Part shown: positions 1,302 through 31,938 of the stretch, one piece after another | How positions within the stretch are numbered: the stretch's first letter is position 1 | How the letters are laid out: every line of letters begins with the position of its first letter | Assembly: GCA_031424715.1 (NCBI GenBank) | Contig: JANPHZ010000256.1 | Location: 1 to 33,872 of the forward strand | DNA length: 33,872 bases | Source of the DNA: Frankiaceae bacterium | Lineage (GTDB): Bacteria > Actinomycetota > Actinomycetes > Mycobacteriales > SCTD01 | Reading direction: 5' to 3' | Program-made: the position numbers and the translations under genes | The notes under the pieces: model-generated | What the model was told of the DNA's origin: nothing | Seen by the model: the letters and a program-made list of their open reading frames with translations, nothing else | Database searches by the model: none

Positions 1302-2570
1302 ATGAGCCGCTGGCACGTGCGCGACCTCACCGATCGCGACCTCGAGCGAGCCGTCGCCCTGGATGCCCTGTCCAGCACCGTCGCGCAGCCGGCGCTGTTC
1401 CCGCTCGCCGACGTCGTGGCGAGTCTGGTGGCGGGACAGCCCGCTGTCACAGCCGAGGTGGGCGGCGAGATGGTGGGCGTGGCCGTCGGTCGCGTCGATC
1501 GCGACCGCGGCTGGATCTTGCGGATGACGCTGCATCCACAATGGCGCGGAAGGGGCCTGGGCAGCGAGCTGCTCGCCCACCTGGAGCATCGGCTGGTCGC
1601 GGCAGGCGCGCGGCGGCTCACCTGCGTCCTGCCGCGCGGGGAGACCGGCACTCAGGCCCTGGTGAACTCGGGCTTCACCACACGGGACGACGTGACCTGG
1701 TTCGACAAGCTCGAGCAGGTGCGGACCGAAGACGTCCAGGCCGCGGCCGCGCTCGGGGGCGTCATCCCGCCGTCCAACCTCTGGGCCAAGGTCGAAGGGA
1801 TGACGCAGGAGAAGGACGTCATCGACCGGCGGGTCGTGCTCCCCCTCGCCCACCGCGGCCTGGCGGAGGAGCACGGGGTGCGCGAGCCGCGCGCGGTGAT
1901 GCTCTTCGGTCCGCCTGGTACGGGCAAGACAACGTTCGCTCGGGCCATCGCCAGCCGGCTGAGCTGGCCCTTCGTCGAGCTGTTCCCCTCGCGCCTGGCG
2001 GGTGGCAGCGGTGGACTGGCCGGCGGGCTGTCCGACGCCTTCTCCACCCTGGCCCAGATGGAGCACGTCCTGGTGTTCATCGACGAGGTCGAGGAGGTCG
2101 CGGCTGACCGGGCCACCACGACCTCTGACGTCGGGGTCGTGAACGAACTGCTGAAGGCCATCGTCACCTTCCGCGAGCGGCCCAACCGGCTGCTCGTGTG
2201 CGCGACGAACAGCATCAGCAGCTTGGACGCTGCCTTCCTTCGGCACGGGCGATTCGACTACGTGCTGCCGATCGGTCCGCCCGACGCAGACGCTCGATGC
2301 GCGCTCTGGCGCCGCGCCGCCGAGAACACGGACGCCGAACTGGACCTCGAGCGTCTCGCCGACGCCAGCGAAGGTCTGACCCCTGCCGACATCGGCCACG
2401 CCGGTCAGCAGGTCGCCGCTCGGTCCTTCGAGTCCACGCTCTCCAGCGGACGACGCCTGCCGAGCACGACCGAGGACTACCTGCGGGCCATAGCCGAGAC
2501 GCGCCCCACCCTGACCGCCGAGGACATCGATCGCTTCCGGGACGACGTACGGCGGTACGAACGTTCGTGA
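1302..2570 (+). CDS. GNAT acetyltransferase / AAA+ ATPase fusion protein
   Basis: GNAT motif A (LHPQWRGRGLGSELL), Walker A GPPGTGKT, Walker B VFIDEVE, second region of homology ATNSISSLDAAFLRHGRFD. Likely start ATG 1302. Confidence 0.85.
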   Translation: MSRWHVRDLTDRDLERAVALDALSSTVAQPALFPLADVVASLVAGQPAVTAEVGGEMVGVAVGRVDRDRGWILRMTLHPQWRGRGLGSELLAHLEHRLVAAGARRLTCVLPRGETGTQALVNSGFTTRDDVTWFDKLEQVRTEDVQAAAALGGVIPPSNLWAKVEGMTQEKDVIDRRVVLPLAHRGLAEEHGVREPRAVMLFGPPGTGKTTFARAIASRLSWPFVELFPSRLAGGSGGLAGGLSDAFSTLAQMEHVLVFIDEVEEVAADRATTTSDVGVVNELLKAIVTFRERPNRLLVCATNSISSLDAAFLRHGRFDYVLPIGPPDADARCALWRRAAENTDAELDLERLADASEGLTPADIGHAGQQVAARSFESTLSSGRRLPSTTEDYLRAIAETRPTLTAEDIDRFRDDVRRYERS

Positions 2571-2611
2571 GCACGGGTCAGCCCGGGCAGACGATCAGCG
2601 CAGCGAGCAGA

Positions 2612-2803
2612 TCAACACACGAAGCAGGTCAGGCTCGTCCAGAGGGCGAACGTGCCGCTGCCGACCAAGGCGAGCAGCGGCCTGAGCGGCAGCCTCGCCT
2701 CTGCGGGCTCCGCCGGGGCCATCGCACCGGCACCTGCCTGGGACCCGACGGCAACCGGCGGCGTCGTCCACTCAACGGCGTCCAGGTCCACGCAGACCGT
2801 CAC
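2612..2803 (-). CDS. Small hypothetical membrane protein (63 aa) ending in CxxC
   Basis: GTG at 2803 overlaps the stop of the MBL-fold gene (GTGA); hydrophobic C-terminal segment LLALVGSGTFALWTSLTCFVC-stop. Confidence 0.5.
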   Translation of the reverse strand: MTVCVDLDAVEWTTPPVAVGSQAGAGAMAPAEPAEARLPLRPLLALVGSGTFALWTSLTCFVC

Positions 2804-4149
2804 GGCGCTGTCATTGGCAAACCCGCCTTCTCGGCGTTGTCGAAGTCGTCGTCGATGTGCACGACCGGGTGCCCCGCGCGGTCCAGCAGACTCGCGGCGA
2901 TGCTGGCCCGGAAGCCGGCGGCGCAGTGCACCCAGACCTTGTCCGACGGCACCTCGGCCAGCCGGTCCTGCAGCTCGCTGAGCGGGATGTGGACCGACCC
3001 CTCGATGAAACCGTTCGCGCGCTCGTCGTGGCGGCGCACGTCCAGGACGACGGCACCCGGCTCGGCGGCGACCTGCTCGAAGTCGGCGACAGGGAAGGAG
3101 CGCAGGTCGATGCCGTCCGCGAGTGACTCGATCTCGCCCGTGGCGGCGCCGGCCGGCCGCTCGATGCCGATGCGCACCAGTTGGCGCTGGGCGTCCGCGA
3201 TCTGCTCGGGGCTCTCGCCGATCAGGGTGACCGGCTCCCCCCACGGGACGATCCAGCCGACATAGGTCGAGAACTGGGTGCCCATCGCCACCGACACCGT
3301 GCCCGCGAGGTGCCGACCGGCGTACGTCGAGCGGTCCCGGAGGTCGACCACCCACTCACCGGCCCGGATCCGCGAGGCGAGCTCGGCGGGGTCGACCGGG
3401 GTGGCCGGCGAGAGGTCCGGAGCGTCCGGCCCCTGCGCGTTGCGCGGGCCCATGTAGGCGTAGTAGGTGGGGTAGCCGGTCAGCCCGGCGACGAGCCGGT
3501 CGACGAACGCCTGCTCGTCGTCCTCGAGCAGCGCGTCGTTGCGGGTCTTCTCGGTCCCGATGGTGCTGTCGCTGCCACCGCTGGCACCGCCGGAGGAGCA
3601 GAAGCTGCCGAAGCCGTGGGTCGGGTAGACCGGCGTCTCGTCCGGGAGGAGCTCGGCCAACCGCCGGGCCGAGCGCCACTGCTTGCGCGTGAGCTCGTCG
3701 GTCCGGTCCGTCCCGAGCAGGTCTGTGCGCCCGACGCTGCCGTACAGCAGCGAGCCGCCGGTGAACACGGCCGAGGGCCCCTCGCCGTCGCTGATGACGT
3801 AGGACACGTGCGTGTCGGTGTGCCCGGGCGTCTCCAGGACTCGGACGGTCATGGTCCCGGCCGAGAGGTCGTCACCGTCGTGCACCGAGCACCGCTCGAA
3901 GGACACCTCGTCGCGCCCGGCCACGACGTAGGTGGCCCCCGTCTTGCGGGCGAGCGCCAGGCCGCCGGTGACGTAGTCGTTGTGCAGGTGGGTCTCGACC
4001 ACCAGCGTCGCGGTCACCCCCAGCTCGCTCAGCAGGCTCTCCACCCGGTCGAAATCGCGCTGCGGGTCGACGACGACGGCGCACGTCCCGTCACTGACGA
4101 CGTAGCTGCGGTCGCCCAGGTCCGGTGTCTCGATCACGTCGACGCGCAT
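2800..4149 (-). CDS. MBL-fold metallo-hydrolase with two rhodanese domains (CstB-like persulfide dioxygenase/sulfurtransferase)
   Basis: ETHLHNDY, ETPGHT, HGFGSFC; a Cys-less rhodanese-like domain, then an active-type domain with VHCAAGFRA; GGAGG RBS upstream. Confidence 0.85.
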   Translation of the reverse strand: MRVDVIETPDLGDRSYVVSDGTCAVVVDPQRDFDRVESLLSELGVTATLVVETHLHNDYVTGGLALARKTGATYVVAGRDEVSFERCSVHDGDDLSAGTMTVRVLETPGHTDTHVSYVISDGEGPSAVFTGGSLLYGSVGRTDLLGTDRTDELTRKQWRSARRLAELLPDETPVYPTHGFGSFCSSGGASGGSDSTIGTEKTRNDALLEDDEQAFVDRLVAGLTGYPTYYAYMGPRNAQGPDAPDLSPATPVDPAELASRIRAGEWVVDLRDRSTYAGRHLAGTVSVAMGTQFSTYVGWIVPWGEPVTLIGESPEQIADAQRQLVRIGIERPAGAATGEIESLADGIDLRSFPVADFEQVAAEPGAVVLDVRRHDERANGFIEGSVHIPLSELQDRLAEVPSDKVWVHCAAGFRASIAASLLDRAGHPVVHIDDDFDNAEKAGLPMTAP

Positions 4150-4177
4150 GCTGCCTCCAGGTGAAGTGTCGTGCTCT

Positions 4178-4189
4178 TTGTCCGTACAT
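4178..4189. promoter_or_regulatory. Putative GntR/HutC-type operator, copy 2 (TTGTCCGTACAT)
   Basis: Lies in the divergent MBL-rhodanese/sulP promoter region; 10/12 match to copy 1. Confidence 0.6.
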
Positions 4190-4195
4190 TAATGT

Positions 4196-4211
4196 CGTGA
4201 GCCGCATCCCG
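4196..4211. promoter_or_regulatory. Possible CRP-family site (CGTGA-N6-TCCCG)
   Basis: One mismatch from the YGTGA-N6-TCACR palindrome; 6 bp from operator copy 2. Confidence 0.3.
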
Positions 4212-30947: not shown

Positions 30948-31145
30948 TCAGCGGCGGAACAGCGAGCTGAAACGGCTGCGCTTCGCGGTGGATGTGGGCA
31001 CCGCGGCCGCGGAGGCCTTCTGCGTCCGAGCGCCGCAGGTGCACTGCTTGTCCGCGGGCACGCCGCGCATCACCTGCTTGACGTGCTTCCCGCACCCGGA
31101 CCATGTGATCTTCCCGCACTTGCGGCACGTCGCCTTGCTGCACAT
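30948..31145 (-). CDS. Small Cys-rich protein (MCSKATCRKCGKITWSGCGKH...CTC)
   Basis: 65 aa, six Cys and one His; AAGGAG RBS; stop lies just before the rhodanese lipoprotein start. Confidence 0.8.
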   Translation of the reverse strand: MCSKATCRKCGKITWSGCGKHVKQVMRGVPADKQCTCGARTQKASAAAVPTSTAKRSRFSSLFRR

Positions 31146-31165
31146 CGCGCTCTCCTTGGGTCAAG

Positions 31166-31181
31166 TATACCCCCCAGGGTA
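31166..31181. promoter_or_regulatory. CsoR/CstR-family operator (TATACCCCCCAGGGTA)
   Basis: TACCC-N4-GGGTA with a C-tract, upstream of the Cys-rich/rhodanese genes. Confidence 0.7.
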
Positions 31182-31256
31182 CATGCTCGGGATTGTCTCC
31201 GGCGTGTTCCAACGCCCGGAGGTCGCACTGACACCTCCGCTCCGGATGCTCCGGTG

Positions 31257-31520
31257 TCAGGCCAGACTCAGGAACAGCTTCTCCATCTGCGCCACGTCGA
31301 GGCCGGCGTCATCGCCCTCCTCGAGCAGGCACTGCTTGAGGCCACTGGCGACGATTGTGAAGCCGGCCTTGTCCAAGGCTCGCGACACGGCGGCCAGCTG
31401 CGTGACGACGTCCTTGCACTCGCGGCCCTGCTCGAGCATGCGGATGACGCCGGCGATCTGGCCTTCGGCACGCCGCAGCCGGTTCACGGCGATCTTCACG
31501 GCGTCCTGTTCGAGCTTCAT
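31257..31520 (-). CDS. CsoR/RcnR family repressor, CstR-like (putative persulfide sensor)
   Basis: [32 protein letters not shown]35-x24-G60-x3-C64 lacks the Cu-ligand His of CsoR; AGGAG RBS. Confidence 0.87.
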
Positions 31521-31620
31521 GCGGTCTCCTGGCTCGGGGCGCCGGTCCCGGCGCTGTGCGTGCAACAACAACAGTCCCGCGGCGCTTGGGCGCCCGCCCC
31601 GCGGTCGGGTCGGCTCGAGC

Positions 31621-31938
31621 TCAGGCCGGGGCGCCGGTCTCGACGGGGCGGCCGCTGCGGATCCAGGCGTTGGTGCCTCCGGCGACCGAGCGGGCCTCCA
31701 CTCCCAGTTGCTGCAGGACCTCGACCGCCTGGGCACTGCGCGCGCCGCTGGCGCAGATGACGTGGACCGGGGCGTCTCCCCGGAGCTCATCTACGCGTGC
31801 CGCGACGGTTGCGAGCGGCATCAGCCGCGCCGACGGCACGTGCCCGACGCTGTATTCGTCGCTCTCCCGAACATCGACCACCTTGGCGCCTGCAGCGCGC
31901 GCCGCGTCCAGCTCGTCGAGCGATGTCTCGATGTGCAT
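31621..31938 (-). CDS. Single-domain rhodanese (sulfurtransferase)
   Basis: [17 protein letters not shown], active loop [23 protein letters not shown] before ATG 31938. Confidence 0.88.

Follow-up and report, generated by a model that had tools for sequence, protein, structure and literature searches.

A putative island for sulfide and sulfane-sulfur oxidation with a predicted cytoplasm-facing molybdoenzyme in a Frankiaceae genome

Genes of the island and a shared palindrome

The window analysed here is the entire contig C256 (JANPHZ010000256.1, 33,872 nt) of the Frankiaceae bacterium metagenome-assembled genome (MAG) GCA_031424715.1, and it brings together genes for sulfide and sulfane-sulfur metabolism with those of a molybdoenzyme that belongs to a large, unnamed family recognized here for the first time. 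The MAG comprises 2.31 Mb in 328 contigs and is 77.7% complete and 0.73% contaminated. Because the GC content of the window is ~71%, genes were picked by their third-position GC; 38 open reading frames (ORFs), and then 10 more, were scanned against Pfam and 29 against NCBIfam (Table 1). The best named relatives of the window proteins are those of Actinomycetota, and the presence of MctB, MMPL and an LAxTG-anchored protein is consistent with this phylum. The initial annotation had listed a sulfide:quinone oxidoreductase (SQR) gene, a CstB-like dioxygenase/rhodanese, several rhodaneses, three SulP transporters and a CstR-like repressor, all of which are present according to Pfam and NCBIfam; its description of a cytoplasm-facing molybdoenzyme accompanied by maturation genes also agrees with what we found, namely a catalytic subunit and a FeS-NrfD protein both devoid of export signals, together with MoeA, TorD-like and Mrp genes. 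It needs correcting in that FeS and NrfD form one protein, that the candidate regulators are three (CstR-type, ArsR-rhodanese and GntR/UTRA), and that a carbonic-anhydrase-like gene follows SulP1.

The catalytic subunit of the molybdoenzyme, of the molybdenum bis-pyranopterin guanine dinucleotide (Mo-bisPGD) type, contains the Molybdop_Fe4S4, Molybdopterin and Molydop_binding domains and an N-terminal 4Fe-4S motif (CFNCESACG), and has no RR motif ahead of a hydrophobic stretch, that is, no twin-arginine (Tat) signal. Its nearest solved structures are PsrA (1.4e-33) and ArrA (1.3e-32), and its Cys225 aligns with Cys173 of PsrA, which we take to be the molybdenum ligand; its best NCBIfam match is PhsA, with 194 bits and far under the cut-off of that model. 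The gene upstream codes for a fusion, conserved across the family, of a four-cluster ferredoxin and an NrfD anchor of the quinone-binding type with eight predicted helices. Since this protein lacks a signal peptide, its FeS domain precedes the first helix, and its K/R-rich loops (KHPTRF..RHHWK, KAR and TKEMTKGR, judged by eye) fall on the side expected for an N-in topology, the catalytic Mo/FeS dimer must, on these sequence features, be placed on the cytoplasmic face. The MoeA gene lies upstream of these two, with a true start that is probably near 6600 because the domain begins at around residue 90 of the longest ORF, and the TorD-like and then the Mrp/ApbC genes follow downstream.

SQR matches the human SQOR structures 6MP5 and 6OI5 (E 7e-104) with both redox cysteines aligned (motifs PIKCGGAPQK and YSSCP) and is therefore assigned to type II; the NCBIfam label “type III” comes from another naming scheme, and that match is below cut-off. 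The CstB-like protein aligns over its full length with the Alicyclobacillus metallo-β-lactamase (MBL)-rhodanese 3TP9 (1.4e-59) and with Staphylococcus aureus CstB 3R2U (1.6e-48). It keeps the CstB domain order, an MBL dioxygenase followed by a middle rhodanese-like domain and a C-terminal rhodanese with its catalytic Cys, as well as the ETHLHNDY metal motif and the C-terminal rhodanese loop HCAAGFRAS (active loop CAAGFRAS). Four other proteins of the window contain rhodanese domains.

One of the regulators, a CsoR-family protein that probably starts with MKLEQD at 31520, has cysteines in GRECKD and KQCLL and a Gly, not a His, four residues before the second Cys, a pattern that we take to be that of CstR rather than of the copper-sensing CsoR. 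Its gene belongs to a distinct run on the minus strand (rhodanese, cstR, lipoprotein rhodanese, DUF302), and two more CsoR-family genes occur elsewhere in the assembly, on contigs C36 and C37. For S. aureus CstR, a review gives Cys31 and Cys60 as the sensing residues (PMC9774590). The sequence of the ArsR-rhodanese protein makes it a candidate second sensor of sulfur species.

Orthologous loci contain in the gap between the GntR gene and cstB a conserved AT-rich palindrome with the forms ATGTACGTACAT, ATGTCCGTACAT, ATGTCCGGACAT or a longer ATGTACGAATGATCGTACAT. With up to two mismatches allowed, the 12-bp pattern ATGTMCGKACAT matches the window at five sites where 1.21 would be expected, and 0 of 100 shuffles gave as many. 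All five sites are in promoter regions; this palindrome linking five promoter regions of the window is new here. At ≤1 mismatch, the whole 2.3-Mb assembly contains five matches, four of them on this contig, and 72 related loci contain seven sites, five of which adjoin GntR, cstB, sqr or FeS-NrfD genes. The perfect copy overlaps the longest possible start codon of the GNAT-AAA gene, and the shorter palindrome ATGTCGACAT upstream of sqr may be a variant operator. As the palindrome adjoins GntR genes in other genomes, the GntR/UTRA protein likely recognizes these sites and ties most of the island together, and the shared putative operator points to GntR, not CstR, as the unifier. A GC-rich inverted repeat of the CstR-operator type common to the sqr and cstR-operon promoters was not found, these two promoters having only unrelated short palindromes.

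A tblastn search of the whole assembly (E≤1e-8) detected no second copy off the contig of CstB, SQR, the Mo subunit or FeS-NrfD, and SulP1, Rhd4, MoeA, DUF202 and ArsR-Rhd were likewise confined to C256; with the copies of all nine query proteins on this one contig, chance is excluded as the reason for their clustering. In agreement with the independence from Sox and Dsr supposed in the initial annotation, SoxB, SoxY and a SUOX-type sulfite oxidase were not found in the MAG, and DsrA and AprA, with sole matches of 23 and 32 bits, respectively, were scored as not found. A search of the assembly for TusA and DsrE was also negative. All these absences are weak evidence since the MAG is 77.7% complete. 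Subunit I of an aa3-type oxidase (COX1) is present in it.

Table 1. Features of the 33,872-nt window, in order of position
Feature	Position	Strand	Basis or remark
Palindrome ATGTACGTACAT, sole perfect copy	1251-1262		Between mctB and GNAT-AAA gene; 18 nt before GGAGG
GNAT acetyltransferase fused to AAA ATPase	1251-2570	+	Pfam, NCBIfam; palindrome in promoter
CstB-like persulfide dioxygenase (MBL fold) with two rhodanese domains	2800-4149	-	Pfam, NCBIfam, alignment
Palindrome TTGTCCGTACAT, 1 mismatch	4178-4189		Divergent cstB/sulP1 promoter region
SulP1 permease with STAS	4258-6060	+	Pfam, NCBIfam; first gene of plus-strand run
Pro_CA_2, putative carbonic anhydrase	5990-6598	+	Pfam; follows sulP1
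MoeA molybdopterin molybdotransferase	6351-7826	+	Pfam, NCBIfam
Palindrome AGGTCCGGACAT, 1 mismatch	7829-7840		40 nt upstream of FeS-NrfD gene
Fused four-cluster ferredoxin (PsrB/NrfC-like) and NrfD-type membrane anchor, 520 aa	7881-9443	+	Pfam, NCBIfam
Mo-bisPGD catalytic subunit, 997 aa	9397-12390	+	Pfam, NCBIfam, structure alignment
TorD/NarJ-type (Nitrate_red_del) maturation chaperone	12273-13319	+	Pfam
Mrp/ApbC Fe-S cluster carrier ATPase	13348-14454	+	Pfam, NCBIfam
GntR/HutC-type regulator with UTRA domain	14456-15256	-	PF00392 (N-terminal helix-turn-helix), PF07702 (C-terminal)
SulP2 permease with STAS	15267-16838	-	Pfam, NCBIfam
Two tandem DUF202 membrane proteins	16812-17330, 17333-17665	+	Pfam; as on Rhodococcus jostii pRHL3
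Weaker palindrome TTGTCCGGACGT, 2 mismatches	16869-16880		Between sulP2 and DUF202 genes
DUF6457 small protein	17678-17926	+	Pfam
Rhodanese with YgaP-like transmembrane tail	17901-18608	-	Pfam, NCBIfam
Palindrome ATATACGTACAT, 1 mismatch	18705-18716		Between rhodanese-YgaP gene and secreted-protein genes
Three genes without Pfam family	18748-21536	+	Palindrome in promoter
Shorter palindrome ATGTCGACAT	21602-21611		~200 nt upstream of sqr
SQR, type II (mitochondrial-type)	21815-23026	+	Pfam, NCBIfam, structure alignment
SulP3 permease without STAS	23054-24298	+	Pfam, NCBIfam; directly after sqr
MFS transporter	24260-25600	-	Pfam; divergent from ArsR-rhodanese gene, same pairing on pRHL3
ArsR/BigR-like helix-turn-helix fused to rhodanese	25609-26343	+	Pfam, NCBIfam
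DUF302 protein	29589-29987	-	Pfam
Exported lipoprotein rhodanese, PspE-like	30481-30918	-	Pfam, NCBIfam; lipobox LLTAC
CstR-type CsoR-family regulator	31257-31520	-	PF02583, 2.3e-22
Single-domain rhodanese	31621-32022	-	Pfam, NCBIfam; upstream of cstR
MMPL transporter	32234-33862	-	Pfam; cut by contig end

Among the products of the three genes without Pfam family are a secreted protein bearing a sortase-type LAxTG anchor and an internally duplicated membrane protein (MFSRGPGG.../MFSRAPDG...). The third product, a lipoprotein, is a paralogue of the LAxTG protein and shares with it the long motifs GSYF.M..P.G and AYYNQGAPKP...GGAF.NF.G.WHLEG; no relatives of these three proteins were seen in the 43 long loci described below. 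The MMPL-rhodanese-CsoR layout is common to the window and to pRHL3, and a GNAT-AAA gene 49% identical to that of the window lies near the enzyme in the Mycobacterium sp. locus L066. After the ArsR-rhodanese gene, positions 26377-26950 contain what is left of a gene for a class-V aminotransferase or a cysteine-desulfurase-like protein, with the N-terminal part (ITYADYTASGRAL...) in one frame and the middle part (Pfam Aminotran_5, 2.3e-10) in another, and with a coding signal that fades past ~26950; a frameshift and a truncation seem to have hit this gene, unless the assembly is at fault. Genes of a copper flavour flank the island (76-1107 and 27148-27761), coding for MctB, a Met-rich-repeat lipoprotein (MMDAGQQM...) and a small SHOCT-domain membrane protein.

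Spread and gene neighbourhoods of the molybdoenzyme family

Among 8000 scored database proteins, the best 120 share 77-86% identity with the Mo subunit and come from across the actinobacterial classes, under generic names such as “molybdopterin-dependent oxidoreductase” or “anaerobic selenocysteine-containing dehydrogenase”; relatives in the ESM Atlas also have only generic names. A scan of one genome per species places the family in at least 739 species genomes, and the 72 loci among the matches listed belong to Actinomycetota, Chloroflexota, Acidobacteriota (Pyrinomonadaceae), Gemmatimonadota, Rhodothermales and Verrucomicrobiia. Plasmid copies were detected by tblastn on Rhodococcus jostii RHA1 pRHL3 (58% identity), the Thermomicrobium roseum megaplasmid (60%) and haloarchaeal plasmids (49-53%). 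In the searchable literature, apart from unopened supplements whose KEGG Orthology (KO) tables might label such genes soeA, neither the fused enzyme nor its pairing with cstB in Actinomycetota is described. In a quick maximum-likelihood tree of 29 sequences, the family, some Tat-less sisters and three Tat-bearing forms make up one clade (SH-aLRT 100), with eleven Psr/Arx-like representatives outside it and with the Gemmatimonadota and Acidobacteriota copies nested among the actinobacterial ones.

Among 120 genomes from the phylum of the MAG, each ≥90% complete, 16 have an orthologue of the Mo subunit (E≤1e-150), and none of the sampled genomes of the same order (n=3) or the same class (n=5) does. 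The module is thus accessory and probably mobile. As the enzyme is absent from this order and class sample, yet 77-86% identical in distant actinobacteria and 81% identical in a Gemmatimonadota MAG, and is also plasmid-borne, a recent horizontal spread is suggested. A relative 38-52% identical occurs on a Sulfurovum mangrovi plasmid (L006/W02, 383909-387044), unannotated and between nrfD and a TorD-family gene, in two pieces (383909-384856 and 384876-387044); this split may point to a pseudogene, to a frameshift or to a gap in the annotation.

Gene neighbourhoods were compared in 43 loci of ≥18 kb, namely 38 genome and five plasmid loci, two of these being outgroups. Within 10 kb of the enzyme, 27 have a TorD-like gene, 19 a CstB-like gene, 12 Mrp and seven GntR, while SQR matches, of which two are weak, occur in six. 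In seven loci (L008, L009, L017, L023, L044, L063 and L072) cstB lies directly upstream of, and co-directional with, the FeS-NrfD, Mo-subunit and torD genes, usually accompanied by a divergent GntR gene; sqr is within the same gene string in L063 and adjoins cstB beside the enzyme in L019 and L067. The genome sample points in the same direction, with a CstB-like gene (E≤1e-40) in 16/16 carriers of the enzyme versus 29/104 non-carriers, although relatives in this sample are non-independent and both the carrier G120 and the CstB-positive non-carrier G018 are unpublished (15/15 without G120). In half of the carriers (8/16) the CstB-like gene is ≤10 kb from the enzyme. Type II SQR (E≤1e-60), by contrast, was found in 9/120 genomes and 4/16 carriers, always clustered with the enzyme in the latter. 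The tie of the family to CstB-like genes, with an operon linkage that recurs in several phyla, is new here.

A Pfam scan of 130 neighbouring ORFs from 17 loci, together with the plasmid annotations, extends this sulfur context. On pRHL3, DsrE and TusA genes lie directly upstream of the enzyme and co-directional with it; TusA is beside the enzyme in L025 and L045, and TusA/DsrE were also found by tblastn in L032, L038, L043 and L069. L045 has in addition an MBL protein with rhodanese, YeeE/YedE (thiosulfate-transporter-like) and TorD in the string, a CsoR-family gene directly precedes the enzyme in Thermomicrobium, and TauE and SulP genes are near it in L012 and L040, respectively. In L028, a CCG-domain protein, a GcvH-like protein and a lipoate ligase look, from their sequences, like parts of sHdr-LbpA. 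L053 and L075 have an MBL protein with rhodanese, TorD and a SulP-STAS-rhodanese protein near the enzyme; in these Ardenticatenaceae loci the latter is a triple fusion (L053:15329-17575 and L075:16387-18546) placed right after the MBL, rhodanese and TorD genes, downstream of the molybdoenzyme. Mrp is near the enzyme on the RHA1 and Natrinema plasmids as well. No sulfur genes are close to the enzyme in L021, L041, L055, L066 and L071; a CLC channel and a copper ATPase are near it in L041 and L071, and an aa3 oxidase in L041 and L066. In the Chloroflexota loci L033 and L039 (~13.9-16.7 kb), an EamA transporter and a channel of the formate/nitrite-transporter family, some members of which carry hydrosulfide, are conserved downstream of the enzyme.

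Proposed function and alternatives

We interpret the contig as a co-regulated island for the oxidation of sulfide and sulfane sulfur, in which the molybdoenzyme would act as a SoeABC-like sulfite:menaquinone oxidoreductase completing a route independent of Sox and Dsr, and give this interpretation a probability of about 55%. SQR would move two electrons from sulfide to menaquinone and yield sulfane sulfur, from which, in the form of persulfide, the CstB-like enzyme would make sulfite and partly thiosulfate with O2; the molybdoenzyme would convert cytoplasmic sulfite to sulfate and reduce menaquinone through FeS-NrfD as SoeABC does, and the SulP anion permeases would carry the products. The GntR/UTRA protein would probably control most of the island through the 12-bp palindrome, and the CstR-type and ArsR-rhodanese proteins probably sub-modules. 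SQR plus persulfide dioxygenase counts as the common sulfide route of heterotrophs, ending in sulfite and thiosulfate. Sulfite oxidation is the simplest function for the enzyme because a quinone-linked molybdoenzyme predicted to face the cytoplasm is operon-linked to sulfite-producing systems: the persulfide dioxygenase step makes cytoplasmic sulfite and conserves no energy (PMC12345210), sHdr-LbpA turns sulfane sulfur into cytoplasmic sulfite by oxidation (PMC11094781), and tusA adjoins soeABC in known oxidisers (PMC11507549).

SulP1 might export sulfate/sulfite, transport bicarbonate or take up molybdate, the last two because the gene lies beside a carbonic-anhydrase-like gene and then MoeA; both functions have precedents among SulP proteins. 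At least for part of the SulPs, a sulfur anion is favoured by the SulP-STAS-rhodanese fusions that accompany the enzyme in Chloroflexota.

Several observations weigh against a sulfite-oxidising island of this kind. Three members of the clade (P0131, P0200 and P0156; 915-1123 residues) have clear twin-arginine signals, so the family has inward- and outward-facing forms. Outside the family, the relatives at 33-37% identity among the best 150 cluster representatives are mostly Tat-dependent Psr/Phs/Arx-like proteins, and none of the 27 representatives with ≥700 aa resembles the Tat-less ~960-aa SoeA of proteobacteria, so that SoeA and the family may not be orthologues. The NCBIfam matches of the 29 window ORFs included no SoeA model, and tblastn against plasmids gave PhsA, DmsA and an arx-like locus but no annotated SoeA. 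The likeness to SoeABC is one of architecture and published description, not of SoeA sequences, and the support for the proposed function comes entirely from sequence data. The supply of free sulfite to the molybdoenzyme is also uncertain, since the final product of S. aureus CstB is, according to a review, thiosulfate and not free sulfite (PMC9774590). SUOX-family PF00174 occurs in 85/120 genomes (a tally that includes the unpublished G018, G048, G068, G088 and G120) and in 15/16 carriers, so there is no complementary distribution and this comparison is uninformative. The closest relative, L007 (86%), shares within reach only the FeS-NrfD, Mo-subunit, TorD and Mrp genes, and 12/16 carriers lack this type of SQR at E≤1e-60. 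Thus, of the cluster drawn in the initial annotation, the linkage of cstB with the molybdoenzyme recurs (19/43 loci, 16/16 carriers), but the whole 30-kb layout is particular to this lineage and not conserved. Likewise, of its chain from sulfide to sulfate, the logic of SQR, CstB-type enzyme and molybdoenzyme is backed by conserved operons and co-occurrence, but only 4/16 carriers have this SQR.

The conserved core is thus CstB plus the molybdoenzyme, with SQR as an optional front end, and the primary role is therefore likely to rid the cell of sulfane sulfur and sulfite while gaining some energy. The initial annotation had envisaged lithoheterotrophy. We think it somewhat more probable than not, however, that the island serves detoxification and sulfane-sulfur/sulfite homeostasis only and supports no growth: it has up to three sensors of the repressor type, each gene is single-copy in the MAG, SQR is missing in 12/16 carriers, and PMC12345210 describes the dioxygenase step as one without energy conservation. 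Against such an exclusive role, two quinone-reducing steps would feed the respiratory chain, COX1 is present, and the sequence is compatible with an energy yield. Lithoheterotrophy is possible because two steps reduce quinone; housekeeping of sulfane sulfur and sulfite is the safer reading, given the several repressors, the energy-wasting dioxygenase and the rarity of SQR among carriers.

The enzyme might also work in reverse, as a cytoplasm-facing polysulfide, persulfide or thiosulfate reductase of the Psr/Phs kind driven by menaquinol and buffering sulfane sulfur or thiosulfate. Its closest structure is PsrA with the Cys ligand position kept, PhsA is its best NCBIfam match (194 bits, far under cut-off), its neighbours TusA, DsrE and rhodaneses are sulfane-sulfur carriers, and thiosulfate is the reported end product of CstB. 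We nevertheless regard a reductase as unlikely: it would remake sulfide beside the SQR and dioxygenase that remove it, in a futile cycle, and the reduction of thiosulfate by menaquinol is strongly uphill by the redox potentials. Moreover, the neighbours TauE, SulP and sHdr-LbpA point to the handling of sulfite and sulfate, and the carriers include aerobes, with an aa3 oxidase nearby in L041 and L066 and COX1 in the MAG.

Alternatively, although slightly less probable still, the enzyme might oxidise thiosulfate or the sulfane sulfur bound to carriers (TusA, DsrE or rhodanese) directly, reaching sulfite or sulfate without O2 and alongside the O2-dependent CstB. TusA/DsrE genes directly upstream and co-directional in several loci (pRHL3, L025 and L045), YeeE/YedE genes in the same string in L045, and the separation of the family as its own deep clade from the Psr/Arx-like representatives of the quick tree would suit this chemistry. 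No Mo-bisPGD enzyme, however, is known to us to carry out such an oxidation; the MAG (77.7% complete) yielded neither TusA nor DsrE, and the 16/16 co-occurrence with the dioxygenase suits a downstream step rather than a parallel one. A version in which the family is a separate branch of the complex iron-sulfur molybdoenzymes (CISM), not SoeABC, and oxidises carrier sulfane sulfur or thiosulfate with quinone under a GntR-type sensor of sulfur metabolites seems just as doubtful. Least credible is a non-sulfur substrate together with a clustering due to the assembly of a mobile stress island and not to one pathway, which the plasmid copies (pRHL3, Thermomicrobium megaplasmid, haloarchaeal plasmids), the patchy distribution with a tree that mixes phyla, the loci without nearby sulfur genes (e.g., L041, L071, L021 and L055) and the copper-related genes of the window (MctB, Met-rich lipoprotein) would allow, but against which stand the cstB operon linkage in several phyla, the 16/16 co-occurrence and the one putative operator common to the cstB and molybdoenzyme promoters.

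If the sulfite-oxidising function holds, the family would fill a gap, as the removal of cytoplasmic sulfite in Sox-less soil Actinomycetota, Chloroflexota and Acidobacteriota is not settled, and its second quinone-reducing step could let cells conserve some of the energy that sulfide oxidation releases. Metagenome surveys relying on SoeABC, SorAB, SUOX and AprAB models to assess sulfite oxidation may miss this enzyme. Direct oxidation of sulfane sulfur, if true, would amount to an O2-independent, energy-conserving step of sulfur oxidation in widespread soil heterotrophs. Cultivable carriers (Rhodococcus jostii RHA1 with pRHL3 and Thermomicrobium roseum) and a defined 12-bp putative operator with its GntR partner offer testable handles.

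Relation to known systems

The front part of the island resembles the cst operon of S. aureus (CstR, CstA, CstB, SQR and TauE) in its type II SQR, three-domain CstB, two-Cys repressor of the CsoR family and several sulfurtransferases. By contrast, cst stops at the export of thiosulfate or sulfite, whereas here a quinone-linked molybdoenzyme is added, SulP replaces TauE, and a putative operator of GntR type spans the promoters. The ArsR-type persulfide sensors BigR (of BigR/Blh) and SqrR, which go with persulfide dioxygenase-rhodanese proteins, have a counterpart in the ArsR-family helix-turn-helix protein, encoded next to MBL or MFS genes, with a weak match to the NCBIfam BigR model (3.7e-9) and an ArsR-rhodanese/MFS pairing that is conserved on pRHL3; unlike them, the regulator of the window carries its own rhodanese domain.

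PsrABC and PhsABC provide the best structural and profile matches of the molybdoenzyme, which keeps the position of their Cys ligand and follows the same subunit logic. They are, however, exported by Tat and periplasmic, whereas the present enzyme is Tat-less, ~230 residues longer and, in the quick tree, part of a deep clade distinct from the Psr/Arx-like representatives.

With SoeABC of Allochromatium vinosum and Aquifex aeolicus the enzyme shares the CISM modules, i.e., a Mo-bisPGD subunit with N-terminal FeS cluster, a four-cluster ferredoxin and an NrfD anchor, as well as the lack of an export signal and the predicted cytoplasm-facing placement; the size of the SoeABC catalytic subunit (~108 kDa) can be counted as a further likeness. 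An inverted, cytoplasm-facing arrangement is proposed for SoeABC in a review (PMC8076601), and tusA is a neighbour of both systems (for soeABC, PMC11507549). By contrast, FeS and NrfD are fused here and the genes are ordered BC-A, whereas SoeABC consists of separate subunits in the order A-B-C. The present enzyme is also accompanied by cstB, torD and mrp, with a putative regulator of the GntR type, and the hosts of its family belong mostly to lineages of aerobic heterotrophs.

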